Part shown: positions 13,609 to 50,081 of the stretch, one piece after another
Layout of the letters: each line of letters begins with the position of its first letter
Numbering within the stretch: the first letter of the stretch is position 1
Source: Aquificaceae bacterium
GTDB taxonomy: Bacteria; Aquificota; Aquificia; Aquificales; Aquificaceae
Assembly: GCA_037925075.1 (NCBI GenBank)
Contig: JAXSNR010000001.1
Span: forward strand, 288,001-352,000
Direction of reading: 5' to 3'
Length of the DNA: 64,000 bases
Position numbers and translations under genes: made by a program
The notes under the pieces: model-generated
Databases searched by the model: none
Told to the model about the DNA's origin: nothing
What the model saw: the letters and a program-made list of their open reading frames with translations, nothing else

Positions 13609-14073
13609 ATGATATACTCAGAAACTGTTAAATATGCCCTACTGGCTTTGGCATACCTCGCCCTGAACAGGGACAGGCTTGTCAAGGTGGAAGAGATAGC
13701 GGAAGCCCAAAAGATTCCAAAGCCCTTCCTTTCAAAGATCTTTCACAAGCTGGCAAGGGAAAGGGTTTTGAAGTCTTTTAAGGGTCCCACCGGCGGTTTT
13801 ACCCTTGCCACACCCCCTGAAGAGATAACCATAATGGATGTTATACGTTACCTTGATGAAGACTACAAGTTAGACTACTGTGCCCTCAGACCAGGAAGGT
13901 GCGAAGAGTGGCAAAGCTCCCCCTGTATGGTCCACCACAAATGGACTGAGCTTAGAGAAAAGATACTCGAATATCTTACTACCACTACCATAGCGGAGCT
14001 TGCTGATGTGGAAAGCAGGCATAGGCGAGAGACCCATGCCCACAAGAACTCCCCTCTAAATCACATACTCTAA
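13609..14073 (+). CDS. Rrf2-family transcriptional regulator (IscR/NsrR-like, three Cys)
   Basis: YAL...EIAE..IPKPFLSKI...GPTGGFTLA wHTH; CALRPGRCEEWQSSPCMVH. Confidence 0.9.
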   Translation: MIYSETVKYALLALAYLALNRDRLVKVEEIAEAQKIPKPFLSKIFHKLARERVLKSFKGPTGGFTLATPPEEITIMDVIRYLDEDYKLDYCALRPGRCEEWQSSPCMVHHKWTELREKILEYLTTTTIAELADVESRHRRETHAHKNSPLNHIL

Positions 14074-18085: not shown

Positions 18086-19158
18086 GCTGGATCCTCCTCC
18101 CTGTAATCTCCATAGACCGCATAGGCTCTTGCCCTTGAATTCCCGTTGCATATATCAATAAAGGAACACTTACCACACCTTCCCTTAAGCCTTCGTGGCT
18201 TTTCTCTGAGAAAGCTCAACAGCCCATTACCCCGCCATATCTCAACTATGTCCCTTTCTTTCACATTGCCCACCTTGTGGAAGAAGAAGGGGTCAGGTTT
18301 TACGTTGCCTCTGAAGTCTATGTTCATGAGCCTCACACCCGCCTGATTACCACCCCACAGAAGAAGTCTCTCATAAAGGCTTCCCTCAAGCCTTGGATAT
18401 CTTTTCGCAAACTCTCTGTAAAGCATGACCGCATCCGTTTCGTTGTTGCCCGTGACCACATCTATGGGAATGCCCCTTTCCACATACTCAAAGGACTTGT
18501 CAAGAATAAACTTCACCCATCTTTTGTATTCTTCCCTTTCAAGGTCCGAAAGCCTTCTACCCCTGCCAGAGTACACAAGATGGGAGATGTAGATTTTTGG
18601 AATCCCTTCCTTCTCCGCAAGGTCAAAGACAAAGGGAAGGCTTCTTGAAGTGATGTGTGTAAGGGTGAACCTGAGCCCTACTCTTATACCTTCCTTCAGG
18701 CATGCCCTTATTGCCTTCAAAGATTCCTCAAAGGCTCCTTTTTTTCCTCTGAAGGCGTCATGAATCTCTGGCTCGCCGTCTATACTTATACCCACATAGT
18801 CAAAGTGCCTTTTTATTTCTTCCATGTATTCCCTTACAAGAAGGCCGTTGGTGGAAAGGTATGTCCTTATACCCTTTTCCTTCAAAAGTCTGGCAATTGT
18901 GAAAAGGTCCCCCCGTAGGAGCGGTTCGCCCCCCGATAGTATGGCAAACCTTACTCCCACAGAAGGAAGGTTATGCGAAAGGCTCACCACCTCCTCATGA
19001 GAAAGCTCCCCTTCCCTTTCTTGGTTGGCGGAGGAGTAGCAGTGTTTGCAGTAAAGGTTGCAGGCGTTGGTAAGGTTCCATATGAGTATCACACCCTCAA
19101 AAGGCTTTCGCTTTTTACCTTCAAGGGGCTCTCTTATGTACTCCGTTATCCTAAGCAT
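18073..19158 (-). CDS. nirJ: Radical SAM heme d1 biosynthesis protein NirJ
   Basis: WNLTNACNLYCKHCY, SGGEP, C-terminal SPASM-type Cys motif (CGKC...ICNGNSRARA...DPACY). Confidence 0.9.
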   Translation of the reverse strand: MLRITEYIREPLEGKKRKPFEGVILIWNLTNACNLYCKHCYSSANQEREGELSHEEVVSLSHNLPSVGVRFAILSGGEPLLRGDLFTIARLLKEKGIRTYLSTNGLLVREYMEEIKRHFDYVGISIDGEPEIHDAFRGKKGAFEESLKAIRACLKEGIRVGLRFTLTHITSRSLPFVFDLAEKEGIPKIYISHLVYSGRGRRLSDLEREEYKRWVKFILDKSFEYVERGIPIDVVTGNNETDAVMLYREFAKRYPRLEGSLYERLLLWGGNQAGVRLMNIDFRGNVKPDPFFFHKVGNVKERDIVEIWRGNGLLSFLREKPRRLKGRCGKCSFIDICNGNSRARAYAVYGDYREEDPACYL

Positions 19159-19639
19159 AGTTAAGCTCCACCGCCACTTCGCATATGCCGTCTCCGTGAG
19201 CGTTGCACTTTGTTTCGTAAGCCCTTACCCTCTTGTTTAGGTAGCTTTCCACTATCCCAGCCACAAAGCCAGCCTCAAAGTGGCATATCCTCTTGCCTAT
19301 GTTTGGCATACCCGAGCAAGTTATGCATTCATCAAGAGCTACCACTATCTTCTCTTGGCTTACATCCACGGGCACCAATAGACCTATCTTTGAGTCTTTG
19401 ACAAAATCTATTACCTTTCCAAGATAAGCGTTAAGGTCTTCATCCTTTAAGGTGTTCCCAACCTCTCTTCCTAACTCTCTTCCCGCCTTTTGAATCAAGG
19501 TTATGGCACCCATATGCCCCACCATATCCTCCAGATGCACGCCAGTAAAGACCCTGAAGGCTCTGAAGACAAGTATGGGTATGTCCTCGCCGAGGTGTGG
19601 CCTTCTTACCTGTGATATGGTTTCAATCCATCCAGCCAT
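19151..19639 (-). CDS. Stand-alone V4R-domain protein
   Basis: ECITCSG...ICHFEAG...ETKC...GDGICE; overlaps both nirN and nirJ. Confidence 0.85.
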   Translation of the reverse strand: MAGWIETISQVRRPHLGEDIPILVFRAFRVFTGVHLEDMVGHMGAITLIQKAGRELGREVGNTLKDEDLNAYLGKVIDFVKDSKIGLLVPVDVSQEKIVVALDECITCSGMPNIGKRICHFEAGFVAGIVESYLNKRVRAYETKCNAHGDGICEVAVELNYA

Positions 19640-21242
19640 CCTTCAGTGCCTCCATAAAGCTTATTAGTGCCTTTAGCTCCTCTTCTTTCAGCTTTATCTT
19701 TGGCATGGCGTTCCTTGAATAACCCAAAAGCCTGTAGGTATTCTGAGGGTCCAGTATCTGGGCCATAACTAAGGAAACATCCCTGTTCCGCACGGACCAT
19801 TTTAGCGGTGGTCCAAAGGCTTGCTCTGTGGTATGATGGCATCCCCAACACTTCTCCATAAAAACCTGATAGCCAAGCTGTGCGGAGTCAAAGCTCCTGC
19901 TTTTGTTAAAAAAGTTGTATTTTCCGGCGGGAAAGCTTGCGGGATATTCCCTTAACTTTTTCAAAGTTACGCCGTCGTAGACCACAAGAAAGCCTTCCCC
20001 TTCATACAGGCTTACATAGGCAAGCCTTCCGTCTCCCGAAAACTCCGTGTGAAGTGCCTTTTTACCCTCTGAGGGCTTTATCCTTTTAACATCAAGGCTT
20101 CTTTTGTCCACAAGGGCAATGCTGTCTGAGGATTCGTCCACCCATAGATAGGGTGTTCCGTAATTGCTCCTTGCCAAGAAGCCCACCCCCTCCAAAGGTA
20201 TATCCTTTACATGCTCCCAACTGTAAGCCTTCCAGATGGAAAGTATTGGTTTTTTTATTATGGGTGTTGCAAAGTAAAAATCACCCTTTGAGTACCAAAA
20301 GTAAGAGGAGGCAAGGTGAGGAAGCCCCGGTATGTTAAGGCTCTTTACAAGCCTCAGGTCTTTCAAAGAGTATATCCTTAGCCCTTCTTTGATGGTGCCT
20401 ATGAGATACTCCTCCAAGGGGTCAAGGGTGAAATCCTCCAGCAGGGCATCTAAGTTTTTGTATGTAATCTGATATCCCTCTTTTTTCAAAAAGCCCACGT
20501 AGGGCTTGTCTCTAAATGTGAAGATAAATTCCTTCCTTGTGTTAAGCTCATAGACCGCGTTTATCCTTCCTTCAACCTCCTTTATCTGAATGGGGTTTAA
20601 ATCCCTATCAAGAAGGACCAAAGAGGTGGGAAGCCAACAGGAGGCTACAAGAATGTCCTCAGAAAGGGCTATGTTCCTTAGGTATATACATACCCTCACC
20701 TTCTTTAGTTTTCCGTCTTTTGGCGAATACTTACCAACCCAACCACTCCTTGAAGGTATGTAAATCTCACCCTCCTTTGAAAACTTTATCCCGCCGTGGA
20801 TGTCTGAAAAGGGTACCTTTGTAAGTATCTCATCACCTTCCATAACCCAGAGAAGGTTCTTCCCCCTTTCTACCAATACCGTGTAATCCTTTAGCCTTCT
20901 GATTTTTATACTTTGAAGATCCGACACTTCTTTGCTTTCCCTTATCTTCTCAACTCCCCAAGCTATTTTCTCTTCATCTATAGGCTTTTTGATAAATTCA
21001 ACAATAGACCTTATCTCTTCATCCCTTAGATGTTCAAAGCTTGGCATTCCAGCGGTGCCCTTTTTTATTACGTGGTAAATCTTCTCATCAGATTTAGGTA
21101 TAAAAAAGGGGGGAAAGAGGGGAGGTGCGCTCTTTCCAAGCCTGTCTTCACCATGGCAGGAGGCACAGTGCTTTTTATAAAGCTCTCCCCCTACTCCAAA
21201 GGAGAGGGAAAAGAGGAGTAGGGAGAGAAACAAGTACCTCAT
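19623..21242 (-). CDS. nirN: NirN-like cd1 protein with an extra C-terminal cytochrome c domain
   Basis: Signal peptide, CASCH heme c, d1 propeller (HGGIKFS, HTEFS, PAGKYN), second CWGCH domain. ATG overlaps the nirS stop (TGATG). Confidence 0.85.
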   Translation of the reverse strand: MRYLFLSLLLFSLSFGVGGELYKKHCASCHGEDRLGKSAPPLFPPFFIPKSDEKIYHVIKKGTAGMPSFEHLRDEEIRSIVEFIKKPIDEEKIAWGVEKIRESKEVSDLQSIKIRRLKDYTVLVERGKNLLWVMEGDEILTKVPFSDIHGGIKFSKEGEIYIPSRSGWVGKYSPKDGKLKKVRVCIYLRNIALSEDILVASCWLPTSLVLLDRDLNPIQIKEVEGRINAVYELNTRKEFIFTFRDKPYVGFLKKEGYQITYKNLDALLEDFTLDPLEEYLIGTIKEGLRIYSLKDLRLVKSLNIPGLPHLASSYFWYSKGDFYFATPIIKKPILSIWKAYSWEHVKDIPLEGVGFLARSNYGTPYLWVDESSDSIALVDKRSLDVKRIKPSEGKKALHTEFSGDGRLAYVSLYEGEGFLVVYDGVTLKKLREYPASFPAGKYNFFNKSRSFDSAQLGYQVFMEKCWGCHHTTEQAFGPPLKWSVRNRDVSLVMAQILDPQNTYRLLGYSRNAMPKIKLKEEELKALISFMEALKDGWMD

Positions 21243-22882
21243 CAATAGATATCCTTCATGGTGTTGTAGACGTTAAAGTGTCCCGTGGGAGTTGCTACCC
21301 AATCTCCTGTAATTTCCTGTTTTAGCTTGAGGGTTTTATCGTCATAGACAAGGATGGCTTGCTTTTGAGGTTCATTCTTTTTGCCCCAAACTACAACCCA
21401 AACCTCATCGCCGTTCTTGTTATACTCAAGATGAACCGCCCTTCCGCTGTATTTCTCTGGTATCTCTATCTGAGCCTTTAGTTTCAAGGTGTTTTTATCA
21501 AAGACAAATAGGGACCTTTGGAGTTTAGGGTCGTTGTGCAATGGTCTATCCGCCCATAGGTGAGGAGATTTAGGGTGGGTCTTTATAAAGAGGTTGCCAC
21601 CACCTTCACCAGGCATCTCTGTCTTTGCAACTACCTTCCATGCATACTGGGGATGCTTTACAGGGTCTGTGCCTATGCATTGAATTGTATTATCCCCCAG
21701 ATGCCCCGTGCACCATATGGGCCCATACTTGGGATGGTCTATGTTTGCCCCCCTTCCTGGGTGCGGTCTTATACCTACCTTTACATTTTTGACAAGCTTT
21801 TTCTCCTTTGTATCCACTATGGATATGGTGTCTCTAAAGTTTGCAGCAACAAGGAAGTATCTCTTTGTGCTGTCCCAACCGCCATCGTGTAGGAACCTTT
21901 CAGCCTCTATCATGGTTATCTTTGGAGCGTGTATGTTAGAATAATCCACAAGCCATATCTGCCCAGCCTCCTTTACATTGACTACCCACTCTGGGTCGTG
22001 GTGGGACGCCACTATGGATGCAACCCTTGCCTCCCTCAAAAATTCGTTTGTATCATAGGTATAGGCACTTGTAGCAACTATCTTCAGAGGCTCTAAGGTT
22101 TGCCCATCCACTATAACAAAGGATGGTGGCCAATAGCAACCTATGATGGCAAGCTTATCAAGAAAATCTCCTTTTGGACCTTTGTACTTGGATGTGTCAA
22201 GGGACCTTCCATCGTAGCATGTTTTTACTTCCGCAACTTTGTCGGGCTTTTTCATCCAAAGGTCTATAAGGACCACCTTACCATCTCTTCCTATGGTGTA
22301 AAGGTACCTTCCAGAGGCAGAGTACCTTGCTATATGGACCGCATAACCGGTATCTACAACGCTTACAAGCTCCTTGGTATCCCCATCAATAATAGCAGTC
22401 TTTCCTATATCCCTTAGTATGACACCCATAAAGTTTTGCCAATTTCTGTTATGTTCGGGCTTTTTCGGTCTCTTTTCTGGTGGAACATATACCTTCCAGG
22501 ACTTTTTCATTTCACCAAGTGGTAGCTCTGGAGGAGGTGGTGGGTCATGCATCAAAAACTTGGCCACTAATTCCACTTCTCCGGGCGTGAGTATTCCTTG
22601 CCTTCCCCAGTCGGGCATGCCACCGGGTGTTCCGTAGGTTATGAAGGTCTTGAGTGTTTCAAATCCCATCTTTCTTGTTTTCTCAGGCAGGAGGCTTGGT
22701 CCAGTGGCTCCCTTTCTTAAAGCTCCATGGCATCCTGCACATCTGTCAAAGTAGATCTCTGCTGCCTTTTTCATCTCCTCCTTTGTGATGGGAGGAGGCT
22801 CTTGGCTCTGTGCATAAACTACTGAACTAACTGCGAGGGACATGGCCCCCAGCACACCGCTTAAGAGCACCTTCTTACCCAT
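21242..22882 (-). CDS. nirS: Cytochrome cd1 nitrite reductase
   Basis: RCAGCHG, GYAVHI, FLHDGG, PHPGRGAN, FIKTHP, PTGHFNV; signal peptide; SD GGAGG. Confidence 0.98.
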   Translation of the reverse strand: MGKKVLLSGVLGAMSLAVSSVVYAQSQEPPPITKEEMKKAAEIYFDRCAGCHGALRKGATGPSLLPEKTRKMGFETLKTFITYGTPGGMPDWGRQGILTPGEVELVAKFLMHDPPPPPELPLGEMKKSWKVYVPPEKRPKKPEHNRNWQNFMGVILRDIGKTAIIDGDTKELVSVVDTGYAVHIARYSASGRYLYTIGRDGKVVLIDLWMKKPDKVAEVKTCYDGRSLDTSKYKGPKGDFLDKLAIIGCYWPPSFVIVDGQTLEPLKIVATSAYTYDTNEFLREARVASIVASHHDPEWVVNVKEAGQIWLVDYSNIHAPKITMIEAERFLHDGGWDSTKRYFLVAANFRDTISIVDTKEKKLVKNVKVGIRPHPGRGANIDHPKYGPIWCTGHLGDNTIQCIGTDPVKHPQYAWKVVAKTEMPGEGGGNLFIKTHPKSPHLWADRPLHNDPKLQRSLFVFDKNTLKLKAQIEIPEKYSGRAVHLEYNKNGDEVWVVVWGKKNEPQKQAILVYDDKTLKLKQEITGDWVATPTGHFNVYNTMKDIY

Positions 22883-22920: not shown

Positions 22921-22949
22921 AATATAAGTAATTATTTACAAAATGTCAA
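22921..22949 (-). promoter_or_regulatory. nirS promoter
   Basis: Minus strand TTGACA-17 bp-TATATT; the spacer contains the near-palindrome GTAATTATTTAC. Confidence 0.7.
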
Positions 22950-23701
22950 GATTTTCCGACTAAAAAATGAGGAAGTGAGTTGAAAAACCTGTAGACGTCC
23001 TTGCCCCATACGAGTACTGGAACAAGGGTAAAAGTAAGCACTCCTCCAACCACGTTAAGGACAAAAAACCAGTCTATCTCATAGGTTCCTCTCTCTTGGT
23101 TGTACCTGAAGCATCTCAGCCAAAAGCCTTCAACGGGGTTGAGTTTAACCTCTTCCCTTTTGGCTTCAAGTACCGCAAGCTTAAAGTCTCTGAGCTTTGG
23201 ATTAACCCCATAAAGATACCTTGATATCCTTCCAGACGGTGTAAGCACCACATAAAGGTTGGGATGGTCAAATTCTCCGAGCCTTTCATCGTACCTGTAC
23301 TTGTAATCTATAGCCCGTAGTAGGCTTTCCGCTTCTTTGCTCCTCACCACATACCAGTTTTCTGGAAGGTTATGGACCTCTCTAAACCTTTTGAGGTCTT
23401 CAAGACTATCCCTTGGGTCAAAGGTCAGGGAAAGGACCACAAGGTCCTCCCTAAGGTCCCTTATGGTTCTCTTTAGGGCTTGCGTCATAAGGTAGCAGGC
23501 CGAGGTGCATTTGGTGTATATAGGGTTAAGCACCACAACCTTGTTAAACTCCCTTATGCCAAAAACCCTCCCTTCGCTATTCTCAAGGCTCACATTGGGC
23601 ACATAGGTGCCTATGGCTTTTTTCTCATCGGGTAGTAGTTCATTGCTCCATGACAGAAGGATGGGAAACAGCAAAAGCAGGAAACTAAAAATCCTTAGCA
23701 T
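22946..23701 (-). CDS. SCO/SenC-family copper chaperone
   Basis: YTKCTSAC (CxxxC), LTFDPRD, FDH; C-terminal CFRY plus TM helix. Start at ATG 23701. Confidence 0.88.
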   Translation of the reverse strand: MLRIFSFLLLLFPILLSWSNELLPDEKKAIGTYVPNVSLENSEGRVFGIREFNKVVVLNPIYTKCTSACYLMTQALKRTIRDLREDLVVLSLTFDPRDSLEDLKRFREVHNLPENWYVVRSKEAESLLRAIDYKYRYDERLGEFDHPNLYVVLTPSGRISRYLYGVNPKLRDFKLAVLEAKREEVKLNPVEGFWLRCFRYNQERGTYEIDWFFVLNVVGGVLTFTLVPVLVWGKDVYRFFNSLPHFLVGKS

Positions 23702-24932
23702 TTCTGTAGCCTCTAAAAAGAGAAAGGGTGGCGTAGGATATGAAAAGCAGTCCACCAAGCACGGCTAACAATCCACCAAAGCCCATAACATTCAGGGCAA
23801 GTATCACCTTTGCATCCTGAACAAACTCAAAGCCATATGTTTTTCTCGGTGCACCCATAATGCCCGCTAAGTAAAAACCAAACACAAGAAGGTTTATCCC
23901 TAAACCAAAAAGGGTTGGTTGGAGCTTTGCAACGCTTTCCCAGAAGACATAGCCAAGTCTTTCTTTGAGTATGTAATAGGTAAAGCCCATGAAGGCTATG
24001 GTTACTCCAGAGACAACGCCATGGTAATGGGCTGGAATCCTCAGGTCGCTTTGCATACCACCATAAGCTATAAGAGCCCCTCCGTGGTACACCACCATGG
24101 AAAACAAAAGGCTTACGGTGGCAACATTCCAGCCCAACCTGAGGTTTTTAACTACATAATAACTATGAAGGAGGACAGGTACACCAAGCCCAACCCCAAA
24201 GGAAAAAGCCAACTGCTTTCTAAAGTCTTCAGAAAGTGGGTCTGTGAAAAAGCCCAGCAGTAGCGGTAGAGCAAAGAGTAAAAGAAGGAAGTTCGCACCT
24301 TTCAACAGGGGACTGTTTACCACCTTGCCAGAGCTTCTTTTAAGGAGTTCATGCCATACCGCAAGCATTACAGAGGTATACATGAATTGTTGTAGATGTC
24401 CCGGTATCCAAAAAAGCCTCTCAAAGAAAAGCTTCATACCACCATCAGAATGGGCTATAAGGAAGGAAAAGGGTATGGAAAGAATCGTGATAAAACCAAA
24501 AAGAACAGAAAGGGGGTAAAGCTCAGTCAGTTTTTTTACATCTTTTAATCTTTGTAGAACTTCAAGAAGAAAACCTAAAAAGAACAAGAAAAGCCCAAAG
24601 TAAAAGAGTGGGCTTCCCACAACGGGTATATAATTGTTCAGATAGGGCTCTCCGTAGGGTAAAAGGCAGGAGAGGGAAAGGAAAAGCATGCCCGTTAGGG
24701 TGGTTGGAGGTGCAACCCTTCCCTTCCTGCCTTTTTTGTAATGCCAGAAGGCAAGGGTAAAGGTCATAAGCCAAAGGGTTATGGAAAAGGTTACATGACC
24801 CACTAAAAAGTGATAAAAAAGCTCTGGAGATTTAAGGAGCGATACCGCAGGCGTTCTTGTAAGGGCTATAAGAAGTCCAAAAACACCGGCGACTATTAGA
24901 GAAAAAAGGGAGAGGGAAAGGTAGAAGAACAT
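23685..24932 (-). CDS. Divergent heme-copper oxidase subunit I paralogue (lacks CuB HH pair)
   Basis: About 12 TM; GHV in TM2, WIPGHLQQF, IPAHYHGVV, GAPRK; no HH pair. Start at ATG 24932. Confidence 0.75.
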   Translation of the reverse strand: MFFYLSLSLFSLIVAGVFGLLIALTRTPAVSLLKSPELFYHFLVGHVTFSITLWLMTFTLAFWHYKKGRKGRVAPPTTLTGMLFLSLSCLLPYGEPYLNNYIPVVGSPLFYFGLFLFFLGFLLEVLQRLKDVKKLTELYPLSVLFGFITILSIPFSFLIAHSDGGMKLFFERLFWIPGHLQQFMYTSVMLAVWHELLKRSSGKVVNSPLLKGANFLLLLFALPLLLGFFTDPLSEDFRKQLAFSFGVGLGVPVLLHSYYVVKNLRLGWNVATVSLLFSMVVYHGGALIAYGGMQSDLRIPAHYHGVVSGVTIAFMGFTYYILKERLGYVFWESVAKLQPTLFGLGINLLVFGFYLAGIMGAPRKTYGFEFVQDAKVILALNVMGFGGLLAVLGGLLFISYATLSLFRGYRNAKDF

Positions 24933-26599
24933 CACCTTACCTCCCACATGGCGGCGAGCCATCCCCAGTTAAGCAGAAGGAATATGAGGAATACCCCCAT
25001 GAAGAGGAGGGTTAAAGTCAAAGTTCCCGGTGCCTCAAAACCATGGTCTTCCTTTGCGTGTGGTGGAGGTGAGGCTATCTGAAGTTGCATGTCCTGAGGA
25101 CCCCTCACCGGCTGTCCAAAGAAGACGGAAAAGACAACTACAAGTATCCATATTAAGGCTCCAACCACAGCCATTATGCCACCTATGGCGAAGAGGACCC
25201 AGAAGAAGTCTACTGCAGGGTTAAAGGTGTAAGTGAAAGGTCCTCCAGAGAAGGTAATATCGTAGTGCCTTCTTGGAATACCGAAGGCTCCAAGGATATA
25301 CATGGAAACTGACAATATGGCTATTCCTAAGCCAAAAATCCAGGGCTGGAGCTTGGCAAGTCCGAAGAAGGCGATCTTCCTTCTGAATATGAGGGGTATA
25401 AGGTAGTAGGTTGCACCCATGAAGGCGAGGGTAGTACCACCTACAACTGTTCCTTTAAAGTGTCCGGGTATAGAAAGGGTGTTGTGTACTATTATATTGG
25501 TTTGCTCCATACCGTTAACCACGCCGGTAACGCCACCTATGAAGCCAAATATAATGATAGAAAGCAATACTGCAGAGAAGGCTGGATTGCCCCAAGGAGC
25601 GTTTTTGAGCCAATCAAAAAGGCCTTTTGTGAAGCCCCTTCTCCTTTGAGCGGATTCAACGGCGGAGGGCACTGCAAAGGCGTGTATCATGGAAGCAAGA
25701 ACAGCTATGTACATAATGTAGCTTGTGTTAAAGACCTTCCAAGCAGGGCTTGGTCCTGGGTCCACCAAAAGGTGGTGAGCAGATGCCACATTTATACCTA
25801 TGACATAAAAAACAAAGGCAAACCTACTTACCTTTTCGTTTATAGAGGTGCCACCAACCGTAAGAAAAGCTCCAAGATACCATATTGCTATCATGGCGGT
25901 TACGTTTATCTGCTGTGAGGAATGTCCAAGACCCCACCAAACCAACTTATAAACACCGGCGTCAATGGTCTTTATTATTCCAAGGGACCATAAAAGGGTG
26001 GGAATGTATATAATTGCACCACTTGCCAGAGTGAGTGTGGCAATGATCGCCGCCGCCACAAGCCCAAAGGTAAACAGCGGTAAAGAGTCTCCGTAGGTTT
26101 TCTCCCTTCTTGCTATAAGAAGGTTTGCAAAGAAAAGGAAAACCCCAATGAGAGCACCCACTGCGAAAAGGATCACACCCAAGTAATAAACTGGATGGGC
26201 TTGCAATGGAGCGTAAGAAGTCATCAGGACATCTGCATTGCCTGTGAGTATGGTATAGTTAACCAGAAGGAAGCCCAAAACCATAAGTATAAGGGCAAGC
26301 CACCCGAACTTTGGAGAAGACATGCGCGAGTTAAGAACGACCGTTGAGCCAAAGTATAGACCTGCTATCTCAAAGAAGACTATCCAGAATATGAGGGCGT
26401 TCAGACCGTGGAGGGTAAGAACCCTGTAGTACCACTCTACAGGTAGAAGATGAACTACTTGCCACCTTGTCAAGACAAGAAGCAGTGCGGCTATTACTCC
26501 GATCAGCAAGGAGACAACAGCCATAACGGCGTTGAGCTGTATAAGCCTCTCAGCTCTTAGGTCAACCTTCAACCCTGTAATATCACATGTTCTAAACAT
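24932..26599 (-). CDS. Heme-copper superfamily subunit I, eNOR-like nitric oxide reductase
   Basis: LTLHG, WWGLGHSSQQ (Gln where the cross-linked Tyr would be), SAHHLL, GMEQ, PGHFKG, GIPRR; lies between the nir and nos operons. Confidence 0.8.
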   Translation of the reverse strand: MFRTCDITGLKVDLRAERLIQLNAVMAVVSLLIGVIAALLLVLTRWQVVHLLPVEWYYRVLTLHGLNALIFWIVFFEIAGLYFGSTVVLNSRMSSPKFGWLALILMVLGFLLVNYTILTGNADVLMTSYAPLQAHPVYYLGVILFAVGALIGVFLFFANLLIARREKTYGDSLPLFTFGLVAAAIIATLTLASGAIIYIPTLLWSLGIIKTIDAGVYKLVWWGLGHSSQQINVTAMIAIWYLGAFLTVGGTSINEKVSRFAFVFYVIGINVASAHHLLVDPGPSPAWKVFNTSYIMYIAVLASMIHAFAVPSAVESAQRRRGFTKGLFDWLKNAPWGNPAFSAVLLSIIIFGFIGGVTGVVNGMEQTNIIVHNTLSIPGHFKGTVVGGTTLAFMGATYYLIPLIFRRKIAFFGLAKLQPWIFGLGIAILSVSMYILGAFGIPRRHYDITFSGGPFTYTFNPAVDFFWVLFAIGGIMAVVGALIWILVVVFSVFFGQPVRGPQDMQLQIASPPPHAKEDHGFEAPGTLTLTLLFMGVFLIFLLLNWGWLAAMWEVR

Positions 26600-26611
26600 G
26601 GCTTCACCTCC

Positions 26612-27142
26612 TCACTCCTTTACTATGATCTTTCCTATCATCATGTGATGACCTATACCGCAAAACTCATTGCAAACTATGTAGAATTCCCCAGCGGATG
26701 TGGGCCTAAAGGTAAGCACATAGTCATAACCTGGATAGACCATAAAGTTCATGTTTACAGGCTGTAGTGAAAAGCCATGAAGAAGGTCCAAAGAGGATAT
26801 GTGAAACCTGTATTCCTGACCCTTTTTAAGTACGAGTATAGGCTCCCATGCCCACATCTTCGCCAGAAGAAACACATCGCTGTTTGGAGGGGGTTCCACC
26901 ACAGGTATGCCCTTTTCTTCCCCAACCTTATACTTCTGTATGAAAGCCTGCGTCAGTGCGTTAAACTCCTGAGGCGTTGTTCTGTAGGTGGTAAAGGAGG
27001 GGTTTTGCTTTCCGTAGACATGCCATACCACCATCCAGAAGAAGAGGATAAGGCATACCACAAGGGCTATAGTGATCCACATCTTTTCATCCTTGGCGAC
27101 CCTCTTGAAATACCATCCTTCTTCAGGTGGAAGCAGTGCCAT
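26612..27142 (-). CDS. Heme-copper oxidase subunit II (CuA, single TM, B-family type)
   Basis: DLLHGF...CNEFCGIGHHMM CuA motif; one N-terminal TM helix. Confidence 0.92.
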   Translation of the reverse strand: MALLPPEEGWYFKRVAKDEKMWITIALVVCLILFFWMVVWHVYGKQNPSFTTYRTTPQEFNALTQAFIQKYKVGEEKGIPVVEPPPNSDVFLLAKMWAWEPILVLKKGQEYRFHISSLDLLHGFSLQPVNMNFMVYPGYDYVLTFRPTSAGEFYIVCNEFCGIGHHMMIGKIIVKE

Positions 27143-27143
27143 G

Positions 27144-27317
27144 TTACTTACCTCCTAAAAGGCTTTCCTTGATTTCGCTGGGTATGGGTGAAAGCCAAGC
27201 CAACTCCAAAAGCCCCCAAATGAGGTAGGAAACCGCATAGATGGTTACACCCAAAAAGAGCAGGAACATAAAGTCATCCAACACCAACTGAAGGAAAGGT
27301 GTTTTCTTTTCCTCCAT
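27144..27317 (-). CDS. 57-aa single-TM protein, probable subunit IIa-like component (absent from ORF track)
   Basis: Hand translation: MEEKKTPFLQLVLDDFMFLLFLGVTIYAVSYLIWGLLELAWLSPIPSEIKESLLGGK*. SD AGGAGG; stop 1 nt before the subunit II ATG. Confidence 0.85.
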   Translation of the reverse strand: MEEKKTPFLQLVLDDFMFLLFLGVTIYAVSYLIWGLLELAWLSPIPSEIKESLLGGK

Positions 27318-27350
27318 GGCTTTACCTCCTTTGGTAAATATTTACTTAGA

Positions 27351-27379
27351 AGATTAATAAAAAAAGGTATCTTTGTCAA
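27351..27379 (-). promoter_or_regulatory. Promoter of the eNOR-like operon
   Basis: Minus strand TTGACA-17 bp-TAATCT, followed by the perfect palindrome GTAAATATTTAC (27334-27345) near the inferred +1. Confidence 0.65.
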
Positions 27380-27477
27380 GAATTAAATTTATCAAAATTT
27401 AACTTTAAATTAAAATGTGTAAATATTTAATGAATGTCTTATATTATTAAGTAAATAACCATTTACAGGAGGTTTCC

Positions 27478-29418
27478 ATGCAGATGGCGAGCATACAGCC
27501 CTTATACGCAGGCTTTCAAAAGCTTTCCCATTTTATGAGCAGGTTCTTTTCCTCAAGACTCAACCCCCTTTACCATTTAGGTGCCATTGCCGTATTTCTT
27601 CTGATAATAGATGTCCTATCAGGCGTCTATCTCTTTCTTTTCTACAGTATAGACCCTCAAACCTCTTACCAATCGGTGGAAAAAATATCCGAAAGCCTTC
27701 TGGGAAGCATAATGAGGGGAATACACAGATACTCTTCCGATGCCTTGATACTTACAACCCTTGCCCATATGGTGCATGTGATAATAACAGATAGGTTTAG
27801 AATGTTCCGATGGGTAGCGTGGGTCACAGGCGTTGCAACCCTTCTCATATTTTTGGCCATTGGGATATCGGGTTACATACTGGTCTGGGATGTGAAGGCA
27901 CAGCTAACTGGGCTCTTGACTGCCAAGTTCTTTTCCTTTCTACCCATCTTTGGAGACGCTCTTATGAGTGCCTTCCTCGGAAGCGACATAAAATACCTTG
28001 GTGGTCTTTTCAGAATACTGCTCTTTGCCCATATAGCCCTTACCATACTCATAGTCTTTACCCTTTGGGTTCATGTTATGAGGAACGCAAGACCAAGGCT
28101 TATTCCTCCAAGGTTTCTTTATATAACCATAACTATCCTTCTAATAGCCTTGTCTCTTGTTTTTCCTGCAAAGAGTGATCCACCGGCTCATATGAATAAA
28201 CTGCCTTTTGAAATGAGCGTGGACTGGTTTTATCTCTTTGGTTATCCTCTTCTCAAGTACATACCCATGTCCGCCAACTGGCTTATGTTTTTGGGCTTTT
28301 TCACCTTCCTCTTTATCTTTCCGTGGCTCATAAAGGGAAGAAGAAACCCACCCGCACACATAGACTTTGAAAGGTGCACAGGCTGTGAACAGTGTTATAT
28401 AGACTGCCCTTATGAAGCCATAACCATGAGGGACTATGAGGGCAAAAAGAAGGCTATTCTTAATGATTCCAAGTGTGCGGGTTGTGGTATATGTGTGGGT
28501 TCATGTAGCACCTTGGTTATAGATATACCAACCTATCCAATAGACGAATACATGAGAAGGATACAGATGGAAAAACCTTCCTACGTTGTTTTTAGATGTC
28601 CCTTTAGTGCCATACCACCAGAAAAAGATAACCTTTTTGTCCTAACTGTTCCTTGTGTTGGTGCTGTAAACACGCATCATGTGGAGGAGATTTTGGATAT
28701 GGGTGTGGAAGGAGTCATCATAATCTCCTGTGAATATGAGGATTGTTATTTCAGAGAGGGAAACAAATGGCTTGAAGAAAGGTATGAAAGAAAGAGAAGA
28801 CCCATACTCAAAAGGAAGGTGTTGGGTGGAAGGGTGCTGATTCTTGAGGCACCTTATGTAAAGTCTGTGGAGAAGGAAATAATGGAGTTTATAAGCTCTA
28901 AAAAGGAGGGGCAGGATGTGAAAATTCTGGCGACAGACAGGATAAACTACCCCATTGCCCTTTCTGTGCTTGCCCTTCCCATATTCCTCTTCTATCCTCT
29001 TACCACCCATAGGGTAGCCTTCTATCCCACGGACATGTCTTCAGTGGTTATAAGCTTAAAATACAGGTCATCTCCCGTAAAGGAAACAGCAAAGGTTGGA
29101 GATGGATCTTTAAAACACATGCAGGCTAAGGGTGCTATAGTAAAAGAGAGGTCACCCATAAGGATTGAGGTTTATAGGGATAAGGAGCTTATCTACTCAG
29201 AGGTGTACAATCCCAGGGGCATAAGGAAGGATGCTTCCATATTTGTTTACAAGGAGCTCTTTTTAAAACCGGGGGGTCAGAGGTTAAAGCTGAGGCTTGA
29301 AGAGGTAGCCCACAAGGACAGGGTAAAGGAGCTTGAGTTTGTGGCTCCCGAAAAGCCAAAGGATAGCCTTCTTATAACCTACCATGAGGCTACTGGGAAC
29401 TTTCTGCTTCTGAGATAA
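27478..29418 (+). CDS. Cytochrome b / 2x[4Fe-4S] ferredoxin / MvhD(FlpD)-like fusion membrane protein
   Basis: Cyt b His pairs RGIH...LAH and FAH...WVH, GYILVWD; CTGCEQCYIDCP and CAGCGICVGSC; PCVG...CEYEDCYFREGN; C-terminal TM plus soluble tail. Confidence 0.85.
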   Translation: MQMASIQPLYAGFQKLSHFMSRFFSSRLNPLYHLGAIAVFLLIIDVLSGVYLFLFYSIDPQTSYQSVEKISESLLGSIMRGIHRYSSDALILTTLAHMVHVIITDRFRMFRWVAWVTGVATLLIFLAIGISGYILVWDVKAQLTGLLTAKFFSFLPIFGDALMSAFLGSDIKYLGGLFRILLFAHIALTILIVFTLWVHVMRNARPRLIPPRFLYITITILLIALSLVFPAKSDPPAHMNKLPFEMSVDWFYLFGYPLLKYIPMSANWLMFLGFFTFLFIFPWLIKGRRNPPAHIDFERCTGCEQCYIDCPYEAITMRDYEGKKKAILNDSKCAGCGICVGSCSTLVIDIPTYPIDEYMRRIQMEKPSYVVFRCPFSAIPPEKDNLFVLTVPCVGAVNTHHVEEILDMGVEGVIIISCEYEDCYFREGNKWLEERYERKRRPILKRKVLGGRVLILEAPYVKSVEKEIMEFISSKKEGQDVKILATDRINYPIALSVLALPIFLFYPLTTHRVAFYPTDMSSVVISLKYRSSPVKETAKVGDGSLKHMQAKGAIVKERSPIRIEVYRDKELIYSEVYNPRGIRKDASIFVYKELFLKPGGQRLKLRLEEVAHKDRVKELEFVAPEKPKDSLLITYHEATGNFLLLR

Positions 29419-33439: not shown

Positions 33440-35422
33440 TTACTTTTGTGCGGTGGGTGGGGTGCCAGTGTAGTATTTAAGAGGTACATTAGAACCAGCA
33501 GGAGAAACCCTTATATAACCTTGCATCTCTTGATGGAGGGCGGAGCAAAAGTCTGTGCAGTAGAAGGGATAAACACCCGGAGCCTTTGGCTTCCACACAA
33601 GGGTCTTTGTCTGACCGGGCATCACAAGGAGTTCCGCTTCTTCTGAGCCTTTGACAGCAAAGCCATGGGGTATGTCCCAGTCCTGCTCAAGATTTGTAAC
33701 ATGGAAGTAAACTGTATCTCCTACCCTTATACCTTCAATGTTATCGGGTACAAAGTGGCTTCTTATCATGGTCATGTAAATATGAACCTCATTACCCTTT
33801 CTCTCAACCCTTGCATCCTTTTCAGCTTTTACAGCGTAAGGGTGCTCGTTTTCAGCAAGTGAATAAATCTTCTTTATCTTGTCCTTTATCTTGTCTGCGA
33901 CTATAGCCTGTGCGTAGTGAGGCTCGCCTATGGTGAAGAACTCATGTATAAGTTGCATCTTTTCCCCACTTATATCGTATAGCTGTGCGGACTGGATAAG
34001 TTCTGGACCTGTAGGGAGTTGCCTGTCTTTGGTTATCTTGTTCATTGCTATCAGATACTTTCCATAGGGCTTCTTTGTGTCTCCGCCTGGTACAAGAAGG
34101 TGTCCCACAGAATAGTAAGTGGGGGCTCTGTCCACCACCTTACAACCCTTGTAGTCGAACTTTACCACCTCTGAGGAGACAAAGCAAGAGGTGTACCCAA
34201 AGCCTTTTCCGTCAAACTCCGTATGTAAGGGTCCAAGGCAAGGTTTTTCGAGCTCACAATGTAGGACCGCATCGTACTTAAGAACAGGAATACCCTCTAT
34301 TTCCTTCTCAAAGGCCTTCTGTTCTATAGCCTTTAACATCTTTGAAAAGGAGTGTATGGGTATTACCGTCGCCAGCTTTCCACCACCCACTATATATTCG
34401 CCATCGTCAGAGACGTCAACGCCGTGGGGTGATTTGGGGGTTGGCAGGAAGTAGGCAACACCTGGGCAGTCTTTTGGGTCTATCACCTTGACAGATTTCT
34501 TTTCTTCTGATGCCGCCATATGCTTTTTCTCATCGTAGTAGTTGTGATAATAGGTAGCTGGCATATCCTTAGCCTTACCTTGAGCTACGCATTCTTCCGC
34601 CCTTTTCCAGTTTATGGCAGCTATAAAGTCTTTGTCGTTCTTGGATGCGTTTACTTCAAGAAGGGTGTGTGCCTGTTCTGTGTTGTAAGAGGTGAAGAAA
34701 CACCAGCCATGGGATGGACCTCTACCACACCTTGCCAAGTCATAGTCAAAGCCTGGCATGAGTATTTGGAAAGCAACATCCATCTTACCCGGCTCATTAG
34801 CCTTTATAAAGCTTATAACACCCTTGAAGTTTTCTTTGTAAGATTCTATGGGGACATCCTTCTGAGGAACTGGCACAGAAAATCTTGAGCCTGCCACCAC
34901 ATACTCCGTGTTCTCCGTTCCGTAGGGTGAAGGGTGGTTTCCAGCGGTATTTGGTATTTCTATTATTTCGGTGGTTTCAAAGGTTGTGAGGTCTATCCTT
35001 GCTATCCTTGGTGTGGCATTGGCGTTTATAAACAGCCATCTTCCGTCGTGCTCTCCATTTGTCTGAGAAAGCCATGGATGGTGCGTGTCATCCCAAGGTA
35101 GGAAACCGTGAGAAGTCATAAGCATAGGCTTTGTCTCTGGTGAAAAGCCATAGCCCGTTTCTGGGTCAACGGAAAATACCTTGATGACCTTGATTATTCT
35201 TCCAGATGGAACACCATACACCGTTACCTGACCGTTGAAGCCTCCGGAGAAGAAAACGTAGAACTCATCGTATTTACCCGGTGGGACATAGACCTTTGAA
35301 GCCGCATCCGTACCCACCGCTTGTGTCTTCACCGCTTCCTTCTTTGGCGGGCAACCCGCCAGCAAAGCACCCACTACGAGGGCCGAAAGCCCCCCCACGA
35401 CCGCTTTTTTCTTGCCCAGCAT
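33440..35422 (-). CDS. nosZ: Clade II (Sec/lipoprotein-type) nitrous-oxide reductase
   Basis: LLAGC lipobox, no Tat RR; CuZ His motifs DTHH, GNH, PHG, GPLH, EPH; CuA motif CTDFCSALHQEM. Start at ATG 35422 after GGAGGT. Confidence 0.97.
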   Translation of the reverse strand: MLGKKKAVVGGLSALVVGALLAGCPPKKEAVKTQAVGTDAASKVYVPPGKYDEFYVFFSGGFNGQVTVYGVPSGRIIKVIKVFSVDPETGYGFSPETKPMLMTSHGFLPWDDTHHPWLSQTNGEHDGRWLFINANATPRIARIDLTTFETTEIIEIPNTAGNHPSPYGTENTEYVVAGSRFSVPVPQKDVPIESYKENFKGVISFIKANEPGKMDVAFQILMPGFDYDLARCGRGPSHGWCFFTSYNTEQAHTLLEVNASKNDKDFIAAINWKRAEECVAQGKAKDMPATYYHNYYDEKKHMAASEEKKSVKVIDPKDCPGVAYFLPTPKSPHGVDVSDDGEYIVGGGKLATVIPIHSFSKMLKAIEQKAFEKEIEGIPVLKYDAVLHCELEKPCLGPLHTEFDGKGFGYTSCFVSSEVVKFDYKGCKVVDRAPTYYSVGHLLVPGGDTKKPYGKYLIAMNKITKDRQLPTGPELIQSAQLYDISGEKMQLIHEFFTIGEPHYAQAIVADKIKDKIKKIYSLAENEHPYAVKAEKDARVERKGNEVHIYMTMIRSHFVPDNIEGIRVGDTVYFHVTNLEQDWDIPHGFAVKGSEEAELLVMPGQTKTLVWKPKAPGVYPFYCTDFCSALHQEMQGYIRVSPAGSNVPLKYYTGTPPTAQK

Positions 35423-35447
35423 GGCAATACCTCCTTTATAAGATTTA

Positions 35448-35909
35448 TTACTTTTCATCAACGCTTCTCAGATATTCAAGTATTGCCCTTGCATCATCCT
35501 TTGAAACATCTTGAAAGGGCATCTGTATTGGGTACTCAGCCAAATGCCCCTTTGCTACAGGGTCCTTCTGAACCATCTCCGCAGGGTTTAGTATCATGTT
35601 CATTATCCATTCTGGCTTTCTTCTTTTTGTAACACCTTTGAGAGGTGGTCCCACATACTTTTCTTCAAGCTTGTGGCACGATGCACACTTGGAGTCAAAT
35701 ATCTCTTTTCCCTTCTTTGCCAAAGCCTGGTCTATAGGCCCAAGCTGTACCTCTTGTATGGGTCCTATGCCTTTATCGCTCACCGCTTCCTCCTTCTTTT
35801 CCACCTGGGTAGGCTGTGGTGGAGATGCCTCCACGGGTTTTTCCGCAGGTTTTTGCTGACAGGATAAGAAGAGGCTTACAAGGGGAACAACCAAAAAGAA
35901 CTTTCTCAT
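35448..35909 (-). CDS. Cytochrome c lipoprotein (NosC-like electron donor)
   Basis: LFLSC lipobox, CASCHK, VGPPL, WIMNMILNP, distal Met. Confidence 0.88.
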   Translation of the reverse strand: MRKFFLVVPLVSLFLSCQQKPAEKPVEASPPQPTQVEKKEEAVSDKGIGPIQEVQLGPIDQALAKKGKEIFDSKCASCHKLEEKYVGPPLKGVTKRRKPEWIMNMILNPAEMVQKDPVAKGHLAEYPIQMPFQDVSKDDARAILEYLRSVDEK

Positions 35910-36034: not shown

Positions 36035-36526
36035 ATGCGGTTAATACCTGAGGTAGGAAAAGCTATCAGTTTAGATGGTCTTTATTTAAGGCTTTTGAAG
36101 GACCACCTTATGCCTTCTGCGGTAGGTTATGAAAGGGTCTATATACTTTCAAAAGGCTTAGGGAGATACATACTTGGGCAGAGGTTTGATAAGGTAGAGG
36201 CTCCAGCAGTGTTTTATGTGAAGAAGGCGGAGCTTTTTGGTTTTTCCTGTGAAGGGGATGTGGATATGTACGAAATAGCTTTTGGTAAGGGAGATATACA
36301 AGGGGGTGAGACTATTGACTTGAGAGAAGTTGAGCATGGCAGAAGACATCCCTTGGTAATGGAAAAGTTCTCCAAAATTGGAGATGGTGAAGCCTTCTTT
36401 ATCATTAACGACCATGATCCACTGCCCCTTTATTTTCAGATGAGTATGTCTTTTCCCAAAAAGGTGGGATGGGAGTATGTAGAGTATGGAGGTAGCTATT
36501 GGAAAATATGTATAAGGAGGTTATAG
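36035..36526 (+). CDS. DUF2249-domain protein with N-terminal cupin-like region
   Basis: C-terminal IDLRE...RHPLV...NDHDPLPLYFQ is DUF2249-like; the cupin call is tentative. Confidence 0.75.
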   Translation: MRLIPEVGKAISLDGLYLRLLKDHLMPSAVGYERVYILSKGLGRYILGQRFDKVEAPAVFYVKKAELFGFSCEGDVDMYEIAFGKGDIQGGETIDLREVEHGRRHPLVMEKFSKIGDGEAFFIINDHDPLPLYFQMSMSFPKKVGWEYVEYGGSYWKICIRRL

Positions 36527-36527
36527 C

Positions 36528-36944
36528 ATGAAAAGGCTTGTATTTTCTTTGCTCTTGAGCCTAAGCTTTAGCCTTGCCCATGAACATATGGAGGAAAGCT
36601 CTCTTACCTTTAAACAGGTTATGCAGATGGTAAATAATTCAGCTTTGAAAATGCTTCAAGGATTCCTTTTAAACAACGATGCTATGGTTCTGGAAGGTGC
36701 CAAGGAGATAGCAAACCATCCAGTGCCCAAGGGAGGACCCTTAAAGTACATAGACCCATCAAAAAGGGAAGAGTTTGCCAGGCTTATGCCCACCTTTGAA
36801 AGACAAGTACATGGCGGTGCGGAGGAAGTTATAAAGTTTATAAAGGAAGGTAAAAGGGAGGAAGCTTTTAGGACATATACAAACATGCTTCAGGGTTGTA
36901 TGGCTTGTCATGAGCTTTTTAGGGACAAGATAAAAGGGCGGTAG
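36528..36944 (+). CDS. Class II cytochrome c (cytochrome c'-like)
   Basis: Signal peptide, helical body, C-terminal CMACH..FR. Confidence 0.8.
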   Translation: MKRLVFSLLLSLSFSLAHEHMEESSLTFKQVMQMVNNSALKMLQGFLLNNDAMVLEGAKEIANHPVPKGGPLKYIDPSKREEFARLMPTFERQVHGGAEEVIKFIKEGKREEAFRTYTNMLQGCMACHELFRDKIKGR

Positions 36945-36946
36945 CC

Positions 36947-37195
36947 ATGAAGGGTGTGATGGATGTGCTAAAAGAAGTTATAGACCCACACACGGGTATG
37001 GATATAGTCAGCATGAACATGGTTAAAGAGGTGAAGGAGCTTGGTAAAGGAAGGCTTAAAGTGGTCATAAAGCCTACAAGCCCCTTTTGCCCTGTTGGAG
37101 GCTACCTTATGCAGGCTGTAAAGGAGAAGGTGGAAAGCCTCGGTTATTCCGCTGATGTGGAGCTTGAGGGATATATCTTCGGAGGTGAGCCATGA
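36947..37195 (+). CDS. DUF59/SufT-like metal-sulfur cluster assembly protein
   Basis: LKEVIDP...DIVSM...PTSPFCP. Confidence 0.85.
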   Translation: MKGVMDVLKEVIDPHTGMDIVSMNMVKEVKELGKGRLKVVIKPTSPFCPVGGYLMQAVKEKVESLGYSADVELEGYIFGGEP

Positions 37196-50080: not shown

Positions 50081-50081
50081 A

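Follow-up and report, generated by a model that had tools for sequence, protein, structure and literature searches.

The window analysed here, a 64,000-nt stretch of DNA from an Aquificaceae bacterium, carries a five-gene operon that very probably encodes eNOR, a type of NO reductase that has already been described. The small membrane protein, CuA subunit II, subunit I, subunit I paralogue and SCO named in the original prediction were all found, in that order on the minus strand (22946..27317; Table 1). Their reading as a non-canonical, eNOR-like NO reductase is borne out by the residue at the cross-linked Tyr position, the channel residues, the heme ligands and the accessions that flank a published reference eNOR, as detailed below. 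The anticipated mislabelling was also seen, as the database names say cytochrome c oxidase. NO reduction itself would be expected by analogy with the family member of R. marinus.

Table 1. Features of the eNOR operon, its neighbourhood and the norCB locus (window positions, except those prefixed C1)
Feature	Position	Strand	Description
Rrf2-family regulator	13609..14073	+	Genome's only one; three conserved Cys
nirS, cytochrome cd1 nitrite reductase	21242..22882	-	PF02239; NO source; own promoter
16-bp palindrome, nirS promoter	22924..22939	.	Between -35 and -10 box; score 19.0, rank 1
SCO1/SenC	22946..23701	-	251 aa; likely start 23701; CxxxC
Subunit I paralogue	23685..24932	-	415 aa; likely start 24932; PF00115, 69 bits
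eNOR subunit I	24932..26599	-	555 aa; COX1 family; PF00115, 225 bits
eNOR subunit II	26612..27142	-	One TM helix and CuA cupredoxin; PF00116
57-aa single-TM protein	27144..27317	-	Putative subunit IIa-like accessory helix
16-bp palindromic operator-like site, eNOR operon	27334..27349	.	Score 15.3, genome rank 6
16-bp palindrome before divergent cytochrome b-FeS gene	27451..27466	.	Score 16.9, rank 4
Cytochrome b + 2x[4Fe-4S] + FlpD/MvhD-like membrane protein	27478..29418	+	646 aa
nosZ, clade II (Sec)	33440..35461	-	TIGR04246, 960 bits (cut-off 625)
norC	C1:19210-19887		
norB	C1:19900-21309		Helix-VI HLWVE, HH and HGH motifs

The HSSQQ motif of subunit I (H226-Q230) aligned with H233-Y237 of the ba3 oxidase, placing Gln230 at the position of the cross-linked Tyr (ba3 Y237), just as the original prediction had it when it noted HSSQQ in place of HPxVY. 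This Gln was found in all 121 homologues, as were the metal-site His residues H226, H275 and H276 and the high-spin heme His H380. The low-spin heme ligands are H64 and K382, the latter position being Lys in 114 and His in 7 of the 121 homologues; a His/Lys low-spin heme is a known eNOR variant (Murali et al. 2024, PMC11214002). The channel residues Y241, S303 and H306 are each invariant (121/121), and their offsets from the Gln (+11, +73 and +76) equal those of R. marinus eNOR (Q245, Y256, S318 and H321; residue numbers from Dataset S1 of Murali et al. 2024, PMC11214002). The Glu of the GMEQ motif (G363-Q366), to which attention had also been drawn, is present and invariant (E365, 121/121), but it aligns with ba3 F369, after helix IX, and not with the FeB-ligating His+4 Glu of cNOR; E365 was rejected as an iron ligand.

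Subunit II carries the CuA ligands H122, C157, C161, H165 and M168, and has a Glu (E19) ahead of its TM helix, a candidate for the channel-entry Glu (E21 in R. marinus). The 57-aa single-TM gene precedes subunit II in 20/20 Aquificaceae loci and its product had no Pfam match; its position is that of the B-family subunit IIa, as described in PMC3128077. The SCO protein (PF02630, 24.8 bits; cut-off 22.8) is the copper chaperone for CuA. Both subunit II (88% identity, P0020) and the paralogue (68%) match H. thermophilus proteins, WP_012962804.1 and WP_012962802.1, respectively, which flank WP_012962803.1, a protein that Dataset S4 of Murali et al. 2024 (PMC11214002) assigns to ENOR. Given the residues above and the match of its neighbours to the genes flanking this reference, we regard the enzyme as eNOR and not as a new enzyme. 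Judged from the flanking accessions and the residue spacing, the H. thermophilus orthologue of subunit I is almost certainly WP_012962803.1 itself. Consistent with this, a quick tree grouped subunit I with the Gln-type proteins (SH-aLRT 100), set apart from A-family and B-family rows and from those of cNOR; the tree held one B-family row, and its scope did not extend to bNOR, sNOR, nNOR and gNOR.

The other NOR families were compared by their diagnostic residues. bNOR and sNOR need Asn at the Tyr position (N245/N243, Dataset S1, PMC11214002), where the present protein has Gln. Membership of nNOR, cNOR or qNOR requires Glu at this position as a fourth metal ligand; here Q230 occupies that column, in which the genome's own norB carries Glu, and E365 lies after helix IX. 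gNOR needs Asp for an active-site His and a subunit II that lacks CuA; the present enzyme retains all three His as well as its CuA ligands. Features in common with the eNOR family (PMC11214002) comprise the Gln for Tyr, the three metal His, the Tyr/Ser/His channel residues, the CuA subunit II, a mistaken database label of cytochrome oxidase and co-occurrence with cNOR in Hydrogenobacter. The differences are the His/Lys variant and the placement of ctaA and ctaB, which lie outside the operon at C1:793440-795181 beside a second copy of the paralogue. Literature searches found no biochemistry of an Aquificaceae eNOR.

The annotation as cytochrome c oxidase would make the operon a B-family-like O2 reductase that works without a cross-linked Tyr. 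The ba3 oxidases (T. thermophilus 1xme and A. aeolicus 7deg) are indeed its nearest solved relatives by sequence and fold (TM about 0.8), with the same IIa-II-I gene order, CuA and a K-like channel, and NO reduction in this organism is already covered by cNOR. However, identity to the ba3 oxidases is about 25%, and they have the cross-linked Tyr, a bis-His low-spin heme and O2 reduction. The Tyr is replaced by Gln throughout the 121 homologues, the B-family enzyme encoded in the same genome carries HPVVY, and three Tyr-bearing O2 reductases are encoded elsewhere in the genome; membership of the B-family O2 reductases was rejected on the Q230 evidence. The purified R. marinus enzyme, which contains heme As, reduced NO and did not reduce O2 (Murali et al. 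2024, PMC11214002), and the operon has a promoter site in common with nirS and norC. We consider an O2 reductase extremely improbable. As the cross-linked Tyr is missing, eNOR should not reduce O2, and O2 is not an expected substrate.

The original prediction also proposed that the operon fills the NO step between nirS and nosZ. Its position between these genes was confirmed, and the window contains no norB or qNor. The genome search for norB that it had called for, once run, located intact norCB about 290 kb from the operon. The gap-filling proposal therefore fails in the host genome: with an intact cNOR present, eNOR fills no missing step. That eNOR is nevertheless the organism's sole or essential NO-reducing step is very unlikely. 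eNOR, and not norCB, lies in the nir-nos island, and norB matches were absent from 15 of the 29 Aquificaceae genomes with eNOR; four of the five high-quality eNOR genomes without a norB match had no other NOR-type subunit I. Against this, the intact norCB bears the same palindrome, a norB match was found in 14/29 eNOR genomes overall and in 12/17 of high quality, and both Hydrogenobacter species shown in Dataset S8 of Murali et al. 2024 (PMC11214002) have cNOR plus eNOR. On gene content, gap-filling by eNOR does hold for some relatives. The genome's cNOR has the inferred reaction and the upstream palindrome in common with eNOR, but uses a cytochrome c subunit in place of CuA, carries Glu at His+4 and is unlinked to the nir-nos island. 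cNOR is described as having no conserved cytoplasmic channel (Murali et al. 2024, PMC11214002).

Subunit I, paralogue, SCO and nirS follow one another in 10/10 loci of genus groups g1 and g4, with nos genes on the opposite side in nine of them; here, nosL, nosD and ABC-transporter genes come after nosZ. The cytochrome b-FeS gene, which the original prediction did not list and which here is transcribed divergently from the operon, adjoins it in 20/20 Aquificaceae loci. A 377-aa and a 402-aa membrane protein showed no significant pairwise similarity. Against the narG model, the type II DMSO-reductase operon located at C1:105871 scored 158 bits, below the cut-off of 1084.

A 16-bp palindrome seems to act as a common regulatory signal for the eNOR, cytochrome b-FeS, nirS and norC genes; at the eNOR operon, it lies between the promoter and the ribosome-binding site. 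When ranked by a matrix built on 25 sites found in 20 relatives, the top six sites in the genome, all intergenic, were those of nirS, norC, a molybdo-enzyme, cytochrome b-FeS, hemerythrin and eNOR. A palindrome scoring at least 12.5 was present 12–36 nt before norC in 18/20 relatives, compared with at most 6.3 in coding controls. The two A-family oxidase operons scored 3.3 and 7.6, the nos operon scored 9.1 (rank 26 of 1720), and for nirS of genus group g3 the score exceeded 10 in 2/8 loci. Total matches at three thresholds (17/7/4) were not above those of column-shuffled matrices (means 35/12/3.4), and the case therefore rests on position and conservation. As the seed consensus was picked after viewing the DNA upstream of the host's nirS and norC, only the norC test in relatives and the nirS rows are blind. 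An FNR/DNR box was rejected (33 matches to an FNR-type pattern versus 41 expected, and none in 27318-27477), and scans for sigma-70 promoters and terminators did no better overall than chance.

The palindrome is placed as for a repressor, probably an Fe-S protein of the Rrf2 family, and the single Rrf2 protein of the genome is the predicted binder, an assignment we hold with modest confidence. This protein scored 44 bits against the NsrR model, well under the cut-off of 182. NsrR-type Rrf2 control of nir/nor genes is known in Thermus thermophilus (PMC5748679), where, as here, the nir/nor genes are accompanied by one for a Cys-bearing Rrf2 protein and the nirS and norC promoters carry a palindrome; the Thermus box has a different sequence.

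The paralogue of subunit I, joined to it by a stop/start overlap, has the 12-helix HCO fold and keeps the heme His residues H46, H302 and H304 and helix-VI H179. The helix-VII metal His pair is absent, with Leu-Gly in those columns, and no conserved pair was seen in paralogue alignments of 98 and 120 rows; a catalytic HCO subunit I was rejected on this ground. CtaA/Cox15 heme A synthase was rejected too: only PF00115 and no PF02628 matched, and among the fold matches listed all 50 were HCO subunit I chains. The family comprises 733 clusters at E<=1e-30 in a 50%-identity library, which may include some eNOR-type matches, and its Atlas look-alikes are unnamed COX1-like clusters. Literature searches returned no tested function for the paralogue or the cytochrome b-FeS partner. 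A 2014 study on HCO-homology (HCOH) families may already cover the paralogue.

Because it keeps both heme sites, has no metal His pair in helix VII and accompanies heme O/A synthases, with the second copy beside ctaA and ctaB, we slightly favour a maturation factor, a non-catalytic protein that helps to make or deliver farnesylated heme. It is possible, with lower probability, that the paralogue is a true eNOR subunit, a two-heme wire that would feed the catalytic core from quinol or the cytochrome b-FeS protein. The overlap with subunit I, the retention of both heme sites and of two residues of the eNOR type (matching Q229 and H306), its place as sister to eNOR in the quick tree (SH-aLRT 96) and one natural cytochrome b-paralogue fusion (P0313) are consistent with such a wire. 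However, the paralogue is missing from the operon in 10/10 loci of genus group g3, and its family occurs in 75/90 Aquificaceae genomes, 46 of them without an eNOR match, compared with 29 that have eNOR. Fusions to UbiA/CtaB (one) and SCO (three) among 12 long members scanned also argue against it.

A heme-modifying enzyme that replaces heme A synthase (CtaA), or supplies its oxidant, seems unlikely. In 17 loci that lack ctaA, the paralogue is adjacent to ctaB or within two genes of it, 15 of the genomes having no CtaA match and two only a weak one, and when 50 genomes were tested a CtaA match was missing in 24/39 of those bearing eNOR. Most of the 50 genomes, though, are MAGs whose completeness is not given, and divergent forms of CtaA score poorly with the Pfam model (E about 1e-15 here). 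Several CtaA-less genomes also carry strong A-family-like COX1 matches, and heme-o oxidases are known. Across 90 Aquificaceae genomes the paralogue accompanies CtaA rather than replacing it (both in 74, neither in 15, discordant in 1), counts that are not independent because the genes are operonic. The form such chemistry might take is similarly doubtful: heme O made by CtaB could enter the empty high-spin pocket of the paralogue and be oxidized there, or the paralogue could drain electrons from CtaA via its low-spin heme. If true, it would let a heme A-type cofactor form with little or no O2, and the NO-regulated copy in the operon would serve eNOR. This would address the stated puzzle that eNOR heme needs an O2-dependent synthase yet is made in anoxic cells, and account for the CtaA-less eNOR genomes.

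A comparable gene may exist in Ferrigenium straubiae, for which bioRxiv 10.64898/2026.01.22.701106 describes an operon with eNOR subunits II and I, sco1 and cytochrome b/Fe-S neighbours. It also has what is named there an 'eNOR scaffold protein of unknown function' and described as very common, which probably corresponds to the paralogue. That operon includes a gene for heme o synthase and a cytochrome b fusion that binds FAD/NADH; the fusion in the present genome has an FlpD/MvhD-like domain at its end and is transcribed divergently.

We propose a mechanism in which periplasmic cytochrome c would donate electrons to CuA of subunit II, loaded by SCO, from where they would pass to the His/Lys low-spin heme and on to the high-spin heme/non-heme metal site of subunit I. 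There, two NO from NirS would be reduced to N2O, which would then pass to NosZ. The K-like channel (Q230, Y241, S303 and H306) could take protons from the cytoplasm, so conserving energy. eNOR would act beside the unlinked cNOR, and one palindromic operator would be common to eNOR, cNOR, nirS, the cytochrome b-FeS gene and the hemerythrin operon. The genes, their residues, the fold, the neighbourhood, norCB and the conservation of the palindrome are observations, and NO reduction (from the R. marinus family member), proton uptake, the role of the paralogue and the identity of the regulator are inferred.

The eNOR identification is correct, and the enzyme type is already known. What the locus adds is a culturable thermophile group in which a single operator seems to govern both eNOR and cNOR, and where it becomes directly testable why cells maintain two NO reductases. 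A role of the paralogue in heme maturation, if true, would bear on the O2 need of eNOR denitrification.

The original prediction placed a five-gene eNOR-like operon between nirS and nosZ, and all five genes were confirmed there in sequence. The window corresponds to G000:C1:288001-352000, and named homologues belong to the Aquificaceae. Alignment of subunit I with the ba3 oxidase of T. thermophilus pairs H226 with H233 and puts Q230 at the position of Y237. According to Dataset S1 of Murali et al. 2024 (PMC11214002), this Tyr position is held by Gln in eNOR, by Asn in bNOR and sNOR, and by Glu in nNOR; the Gln is also an eNOR diagnostic in the accessible text of Schwartz et al. (PMC8756737). 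The same Dataset S1 gives Y256, S318 and H321 as channel residues of the R. marinus eNOR, and Y241, S303 and H306 of subunit I are spaced identically relative to the Gln. Across the query and 120 aligned homologues, Q229, Q230, Y241, H275, H276, S303, H306, E365 and H380 were invariant (121/121), and the second low-spin heme ligand was Lys in 114 rows and His in seven, the Lys variant being named for eNOR in the available part of PMC11214002.

The predicted structure of subunit I (pLDDT 89) is closest to ba3 structures. In a quick tree, subunit I joined all the Gln-type proteins (SH-aLRT 100) and stood clear of the A-family, the B-family and norB; the 53 rows included 11 A-family sequences, one B-family sequence and norB, and none of bNOR, sNOR, nNOR or gNOR. 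Gln at the Tyr position and channel residue spacing bear out the eNOR-type call, and by sequence subunit I belongs to eNOR. The Glu of the GMEQ motif (E365), noted in the original prediction, is a family signature; in the alignment it falls on ba3 F369, beyond helix IX, and not on the helix-VI position of the norB Glu.

The eNOR described here is an already known family. Subunit II is 88% identical to WP_012962804.1, the paralogue of subunit I is 68% identical to WP_012962802.1, and subunit I is 94% identical to P0173, another protein named H. thermophilus. From these two flanking accessions, subunit I is assigned as the orthologue of H. thermophilus WP_012962803.1, which is listed as ENOR in Dataset S4 of PMC11214002. 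The one functional basis for predicting NO reduction is the purified R. marinus enzyme, which reduces NO and not O2 (available text of PMC11214002).

Features of the eNOR island and related loci (window coordinates unless a contig is named; C1 and C2, contigs of this genome, G000; G019, a relative genome; L, other loci)
Feature	Location	Strand	Size or detail
IIa-like protein	eNOR operon	-	57 aa, single helix
Subunit II	eNOR operon	-	176 aa, CuA
Subunit I	eNOR operon	-	555 aa
Paralogue of subunit I	eNOR operon	-	415 aa; likely start overlaps subunit I stop by one base
SCO protein	eNOR operon, fifth gene	-	
Cytochrome b-FeS gene	27478-29418	+	cytochrome b + 2x[4Fe-4S] + FlpD fusion, 646 aa
V4R-domain gene	19151-19639	-	stand-alone
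DUF2249 stretch	36035-38801	+	two DUF2249 genes, 138-aa ORF, 377-aa membrane protein
DarT/DarG-like ORF	49989-51248	+	419 aa; DarT-like 38-228, DarG-like 243-410
norCB	C1:19210-21309		norC directly before norB
Molybdopterin protein	L189:544-1137 (G000:C2:282540-283136)	-	small, sulfite-oxidase fold; third-best operator site (17.3)
Hemerythrin operon	L190:1007-2637 (G000:C1:797503-799136)	-	hemerythrin + 402-aa membrane protein
DMSO-reductase type II operon	L188:372-5803 (G000:C1:105871 onward)		alpha/beta/gamma
COX1-type frame	L237 (G019:C15:138282-139547)		483 residues, unclassified
COX1-end proteins	L130:4094-4501	-	136 aa; also at 9 other loci

On its 3' side the operon is followed by nirS, a second cd1-like gene, the V4R gene and nirJ-, nirF- and nirE-like genes; on its 5' side lie the divergent cytochrome b-FeS gene and then a clade II nos cluster. 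We surveyed 20 of the 29 eNOR regions of family genomes. The order IIa-II-I-paralogue-SCO-nirS is kept in 10/10 loci of genus groups g1 and g4, nine of which carry nos genes on the opposite side, and in genus group g3 SCO directly follows subunit I (10/10). All 20 loci carry the divergent cytochrome b-FeS gene, which many distant loci likewise place close to eNOR or the paralogue. The V4R gene, a possible sensor, sits in the nir operon of most g1/g4 loci.

The original prediction had this operon filling the NO step; the strong form of that claim, that it is the only NO step, is refuted for this genome (1.6 Mb, 99.95% complete), since the genome search for norB that it proposed found norCB elsewhere, so that the step is occupied even without the eNOR operon. 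A family search recovered seven COX1-type genes, comprising two A-family oxidases and one B-family oxidase, all bearing the Tyr, eNOR, two paralogues and norB. Among 90 family genomes, 29 carry this eNOR, 31 a norB match and 14 both; norB is found in 12 of the 17 high-quality eNOR genomes. In four of the five high-quality eNOR genomes lacking a norB match, nothing beyond Tyr-bearing oxidases, eNOR and the paralogue turned up; the fifth, G019, carries an additional subunit I that is unclassified. The COX1-type frame of G019 is possibly another NOR family. A gap-filling role for eNOR is reasonable in the relatives that have no other NOR-type subunit I.

Alignment of 21 intergenic regions revealed a 16-bp palindrome, consensus GTAAGTAATTACTTAC, just 5' of each ribosome-binding site. 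We derived a matrix from 25 distinct sites in 20 relatives and scanned both large contigs of this genome with it. The top six sites, all intergenic, precede nirS (19.0), norC (18.9), the molybdopterin oxidoreductase (17.3), the cytochrome b-FeS gene (16.9), the hemerythrin operon (15.4) and eNOR (15.3), the seed having been fixed after the nirS and norC promoters of this genome had been viewed. Among 1720 upstream regions, those of the A-family operons scored 3.3 and 7.6, that of ctaA 1.3 and that of the nos operon only 9.1, and match counts across the two large contigs were no higher than with shuffled matrices. Another 30 genomes have norB; among 20 of these, retrieved once the matrix was final, 18 had a site scoring at least 12.5 at 12-36 nt upstream of norC, and coding controls reached a maximum of 6.3. 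At nirS, scores exceeded 10 in 10/10 g1/g4 loci versus 2/8 g3 loci; in this genome the nirS palindrome falls between -35 and -10 boxes, positioned as a repressor site would be. A literature search listed no publication on this palindrome, its coverage excluding most subscription papers on H. thermophilus.

The 402-aa membrane protein beside hemerythrin has no Pfam or NCBIfam match; in g3 both genes are located inside the eNOR island, and they are possibly an NO-handling pair. The DUF2249 stretch, whose 138-aa ORF and 377-aa membrane protein have no family matches, is divergent from the nos cluster, with a weak operator-like site (9.1) between. Elsewhere, a stretch of low GC content (37%) holds the DarT/DarG-like ORF, which resembles a bacterial toxin-antitoxin pair fused into one protein, both matches falling below model cut-offs, and the DMSO-reductase type II operon, below all cut-offs, may encode a periplasm-facing nitrate reductase.

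The best candidate binder of the operator is an Rrf2 protein with three conserved Cys, because its gene, the only Rrf2 gene in the genome, lies in the window and, in the six g3 loci long enough, follows cytochrome b-FeS, hemerythrin and the 402-aa membrane protein inside the island. Two Crp-family genes and the V4R gene are alternative candidates. In Thermus, an Rrf2 protein acts at nirS and norC through a box of different sequence (available text of PMC5748679).

The paralogue is predicted to be a 12-helix HCO subunit (pLDDT 95.6), and fold matches agree. Helix II retains its His, helix VI its His and helix X its His-Tyr-His, but the helix-VII His pair is absent, so the protein could plausibly bind two hemes and would have no CuB/FeB site. 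Residues matching eNOR Q229 and H306 are present, and the quick tree makes the paralogue sister to eNOR (96). In this genome a second copy follows ctaA-ctaB. Across 80 loci of other genomes the paralogue often stands beside ctaB, within an eNOR or A-family operon, or by itself, and 15 of these loci have DUF420 close by; the 136-aa proteins that recur near the paralogue match only the last third of COX1. Among 12 long paralogues scanned, fusions were to SCO (3), TPR (3), UbiA/CtaB (1) and cytochrome b (1). Within the 90 family genomes the paralogue occurs in 75, CtaA in 74 and both in 74, and 46 have the paralogue without an eNOR match. These neighbours, fusions, CtaA co-occurrence and presence without eNOR suggest that the paralogue assists heme O/A enzymes in general and that the copy in this operon is a dedicated one under NO regulation. 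An enzymatic role is possible, because 24 of the 39 eNOR genomes among 50 other paralogue-bearing genomes show no CtaA match, but these 50 are mostly MAGs and the CtaA model is weak on divergent CtaA. The accessible text of a 2026 Ferrigenium preprint (10.64898/2026.01.22.701106) calls an 'eNOR scaffold protein of unknown function' common, mentions cytochrome b/Fe-S neighbours of eNOR and raises the puzzle of how anoxic cells make heme A when its synthesis depends on O2; that of the eNOR preprint (10.1101/2021.10.15.464467) mentions only ctaA and ctaB.

The genes, ligands, fold, synteny, second NO reductase and conserved shared site were computed here, and they can be set within a proposed mechanism. 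Electrons would pass from cytochrome c through CuA and the low-spin heme to the binuclear site, where 2 NO would yield N2O, and protons would be drawn from the cytoplasm. SCO would load CuA, the paralogue may handle heme, and Rrf2 may free the operator promoters on NO or low O2. A division of labour is plausible, in which eNOR would serve energy-conserving microoxic denitrification and cNOR would serve anoxic or high-NO conditions.
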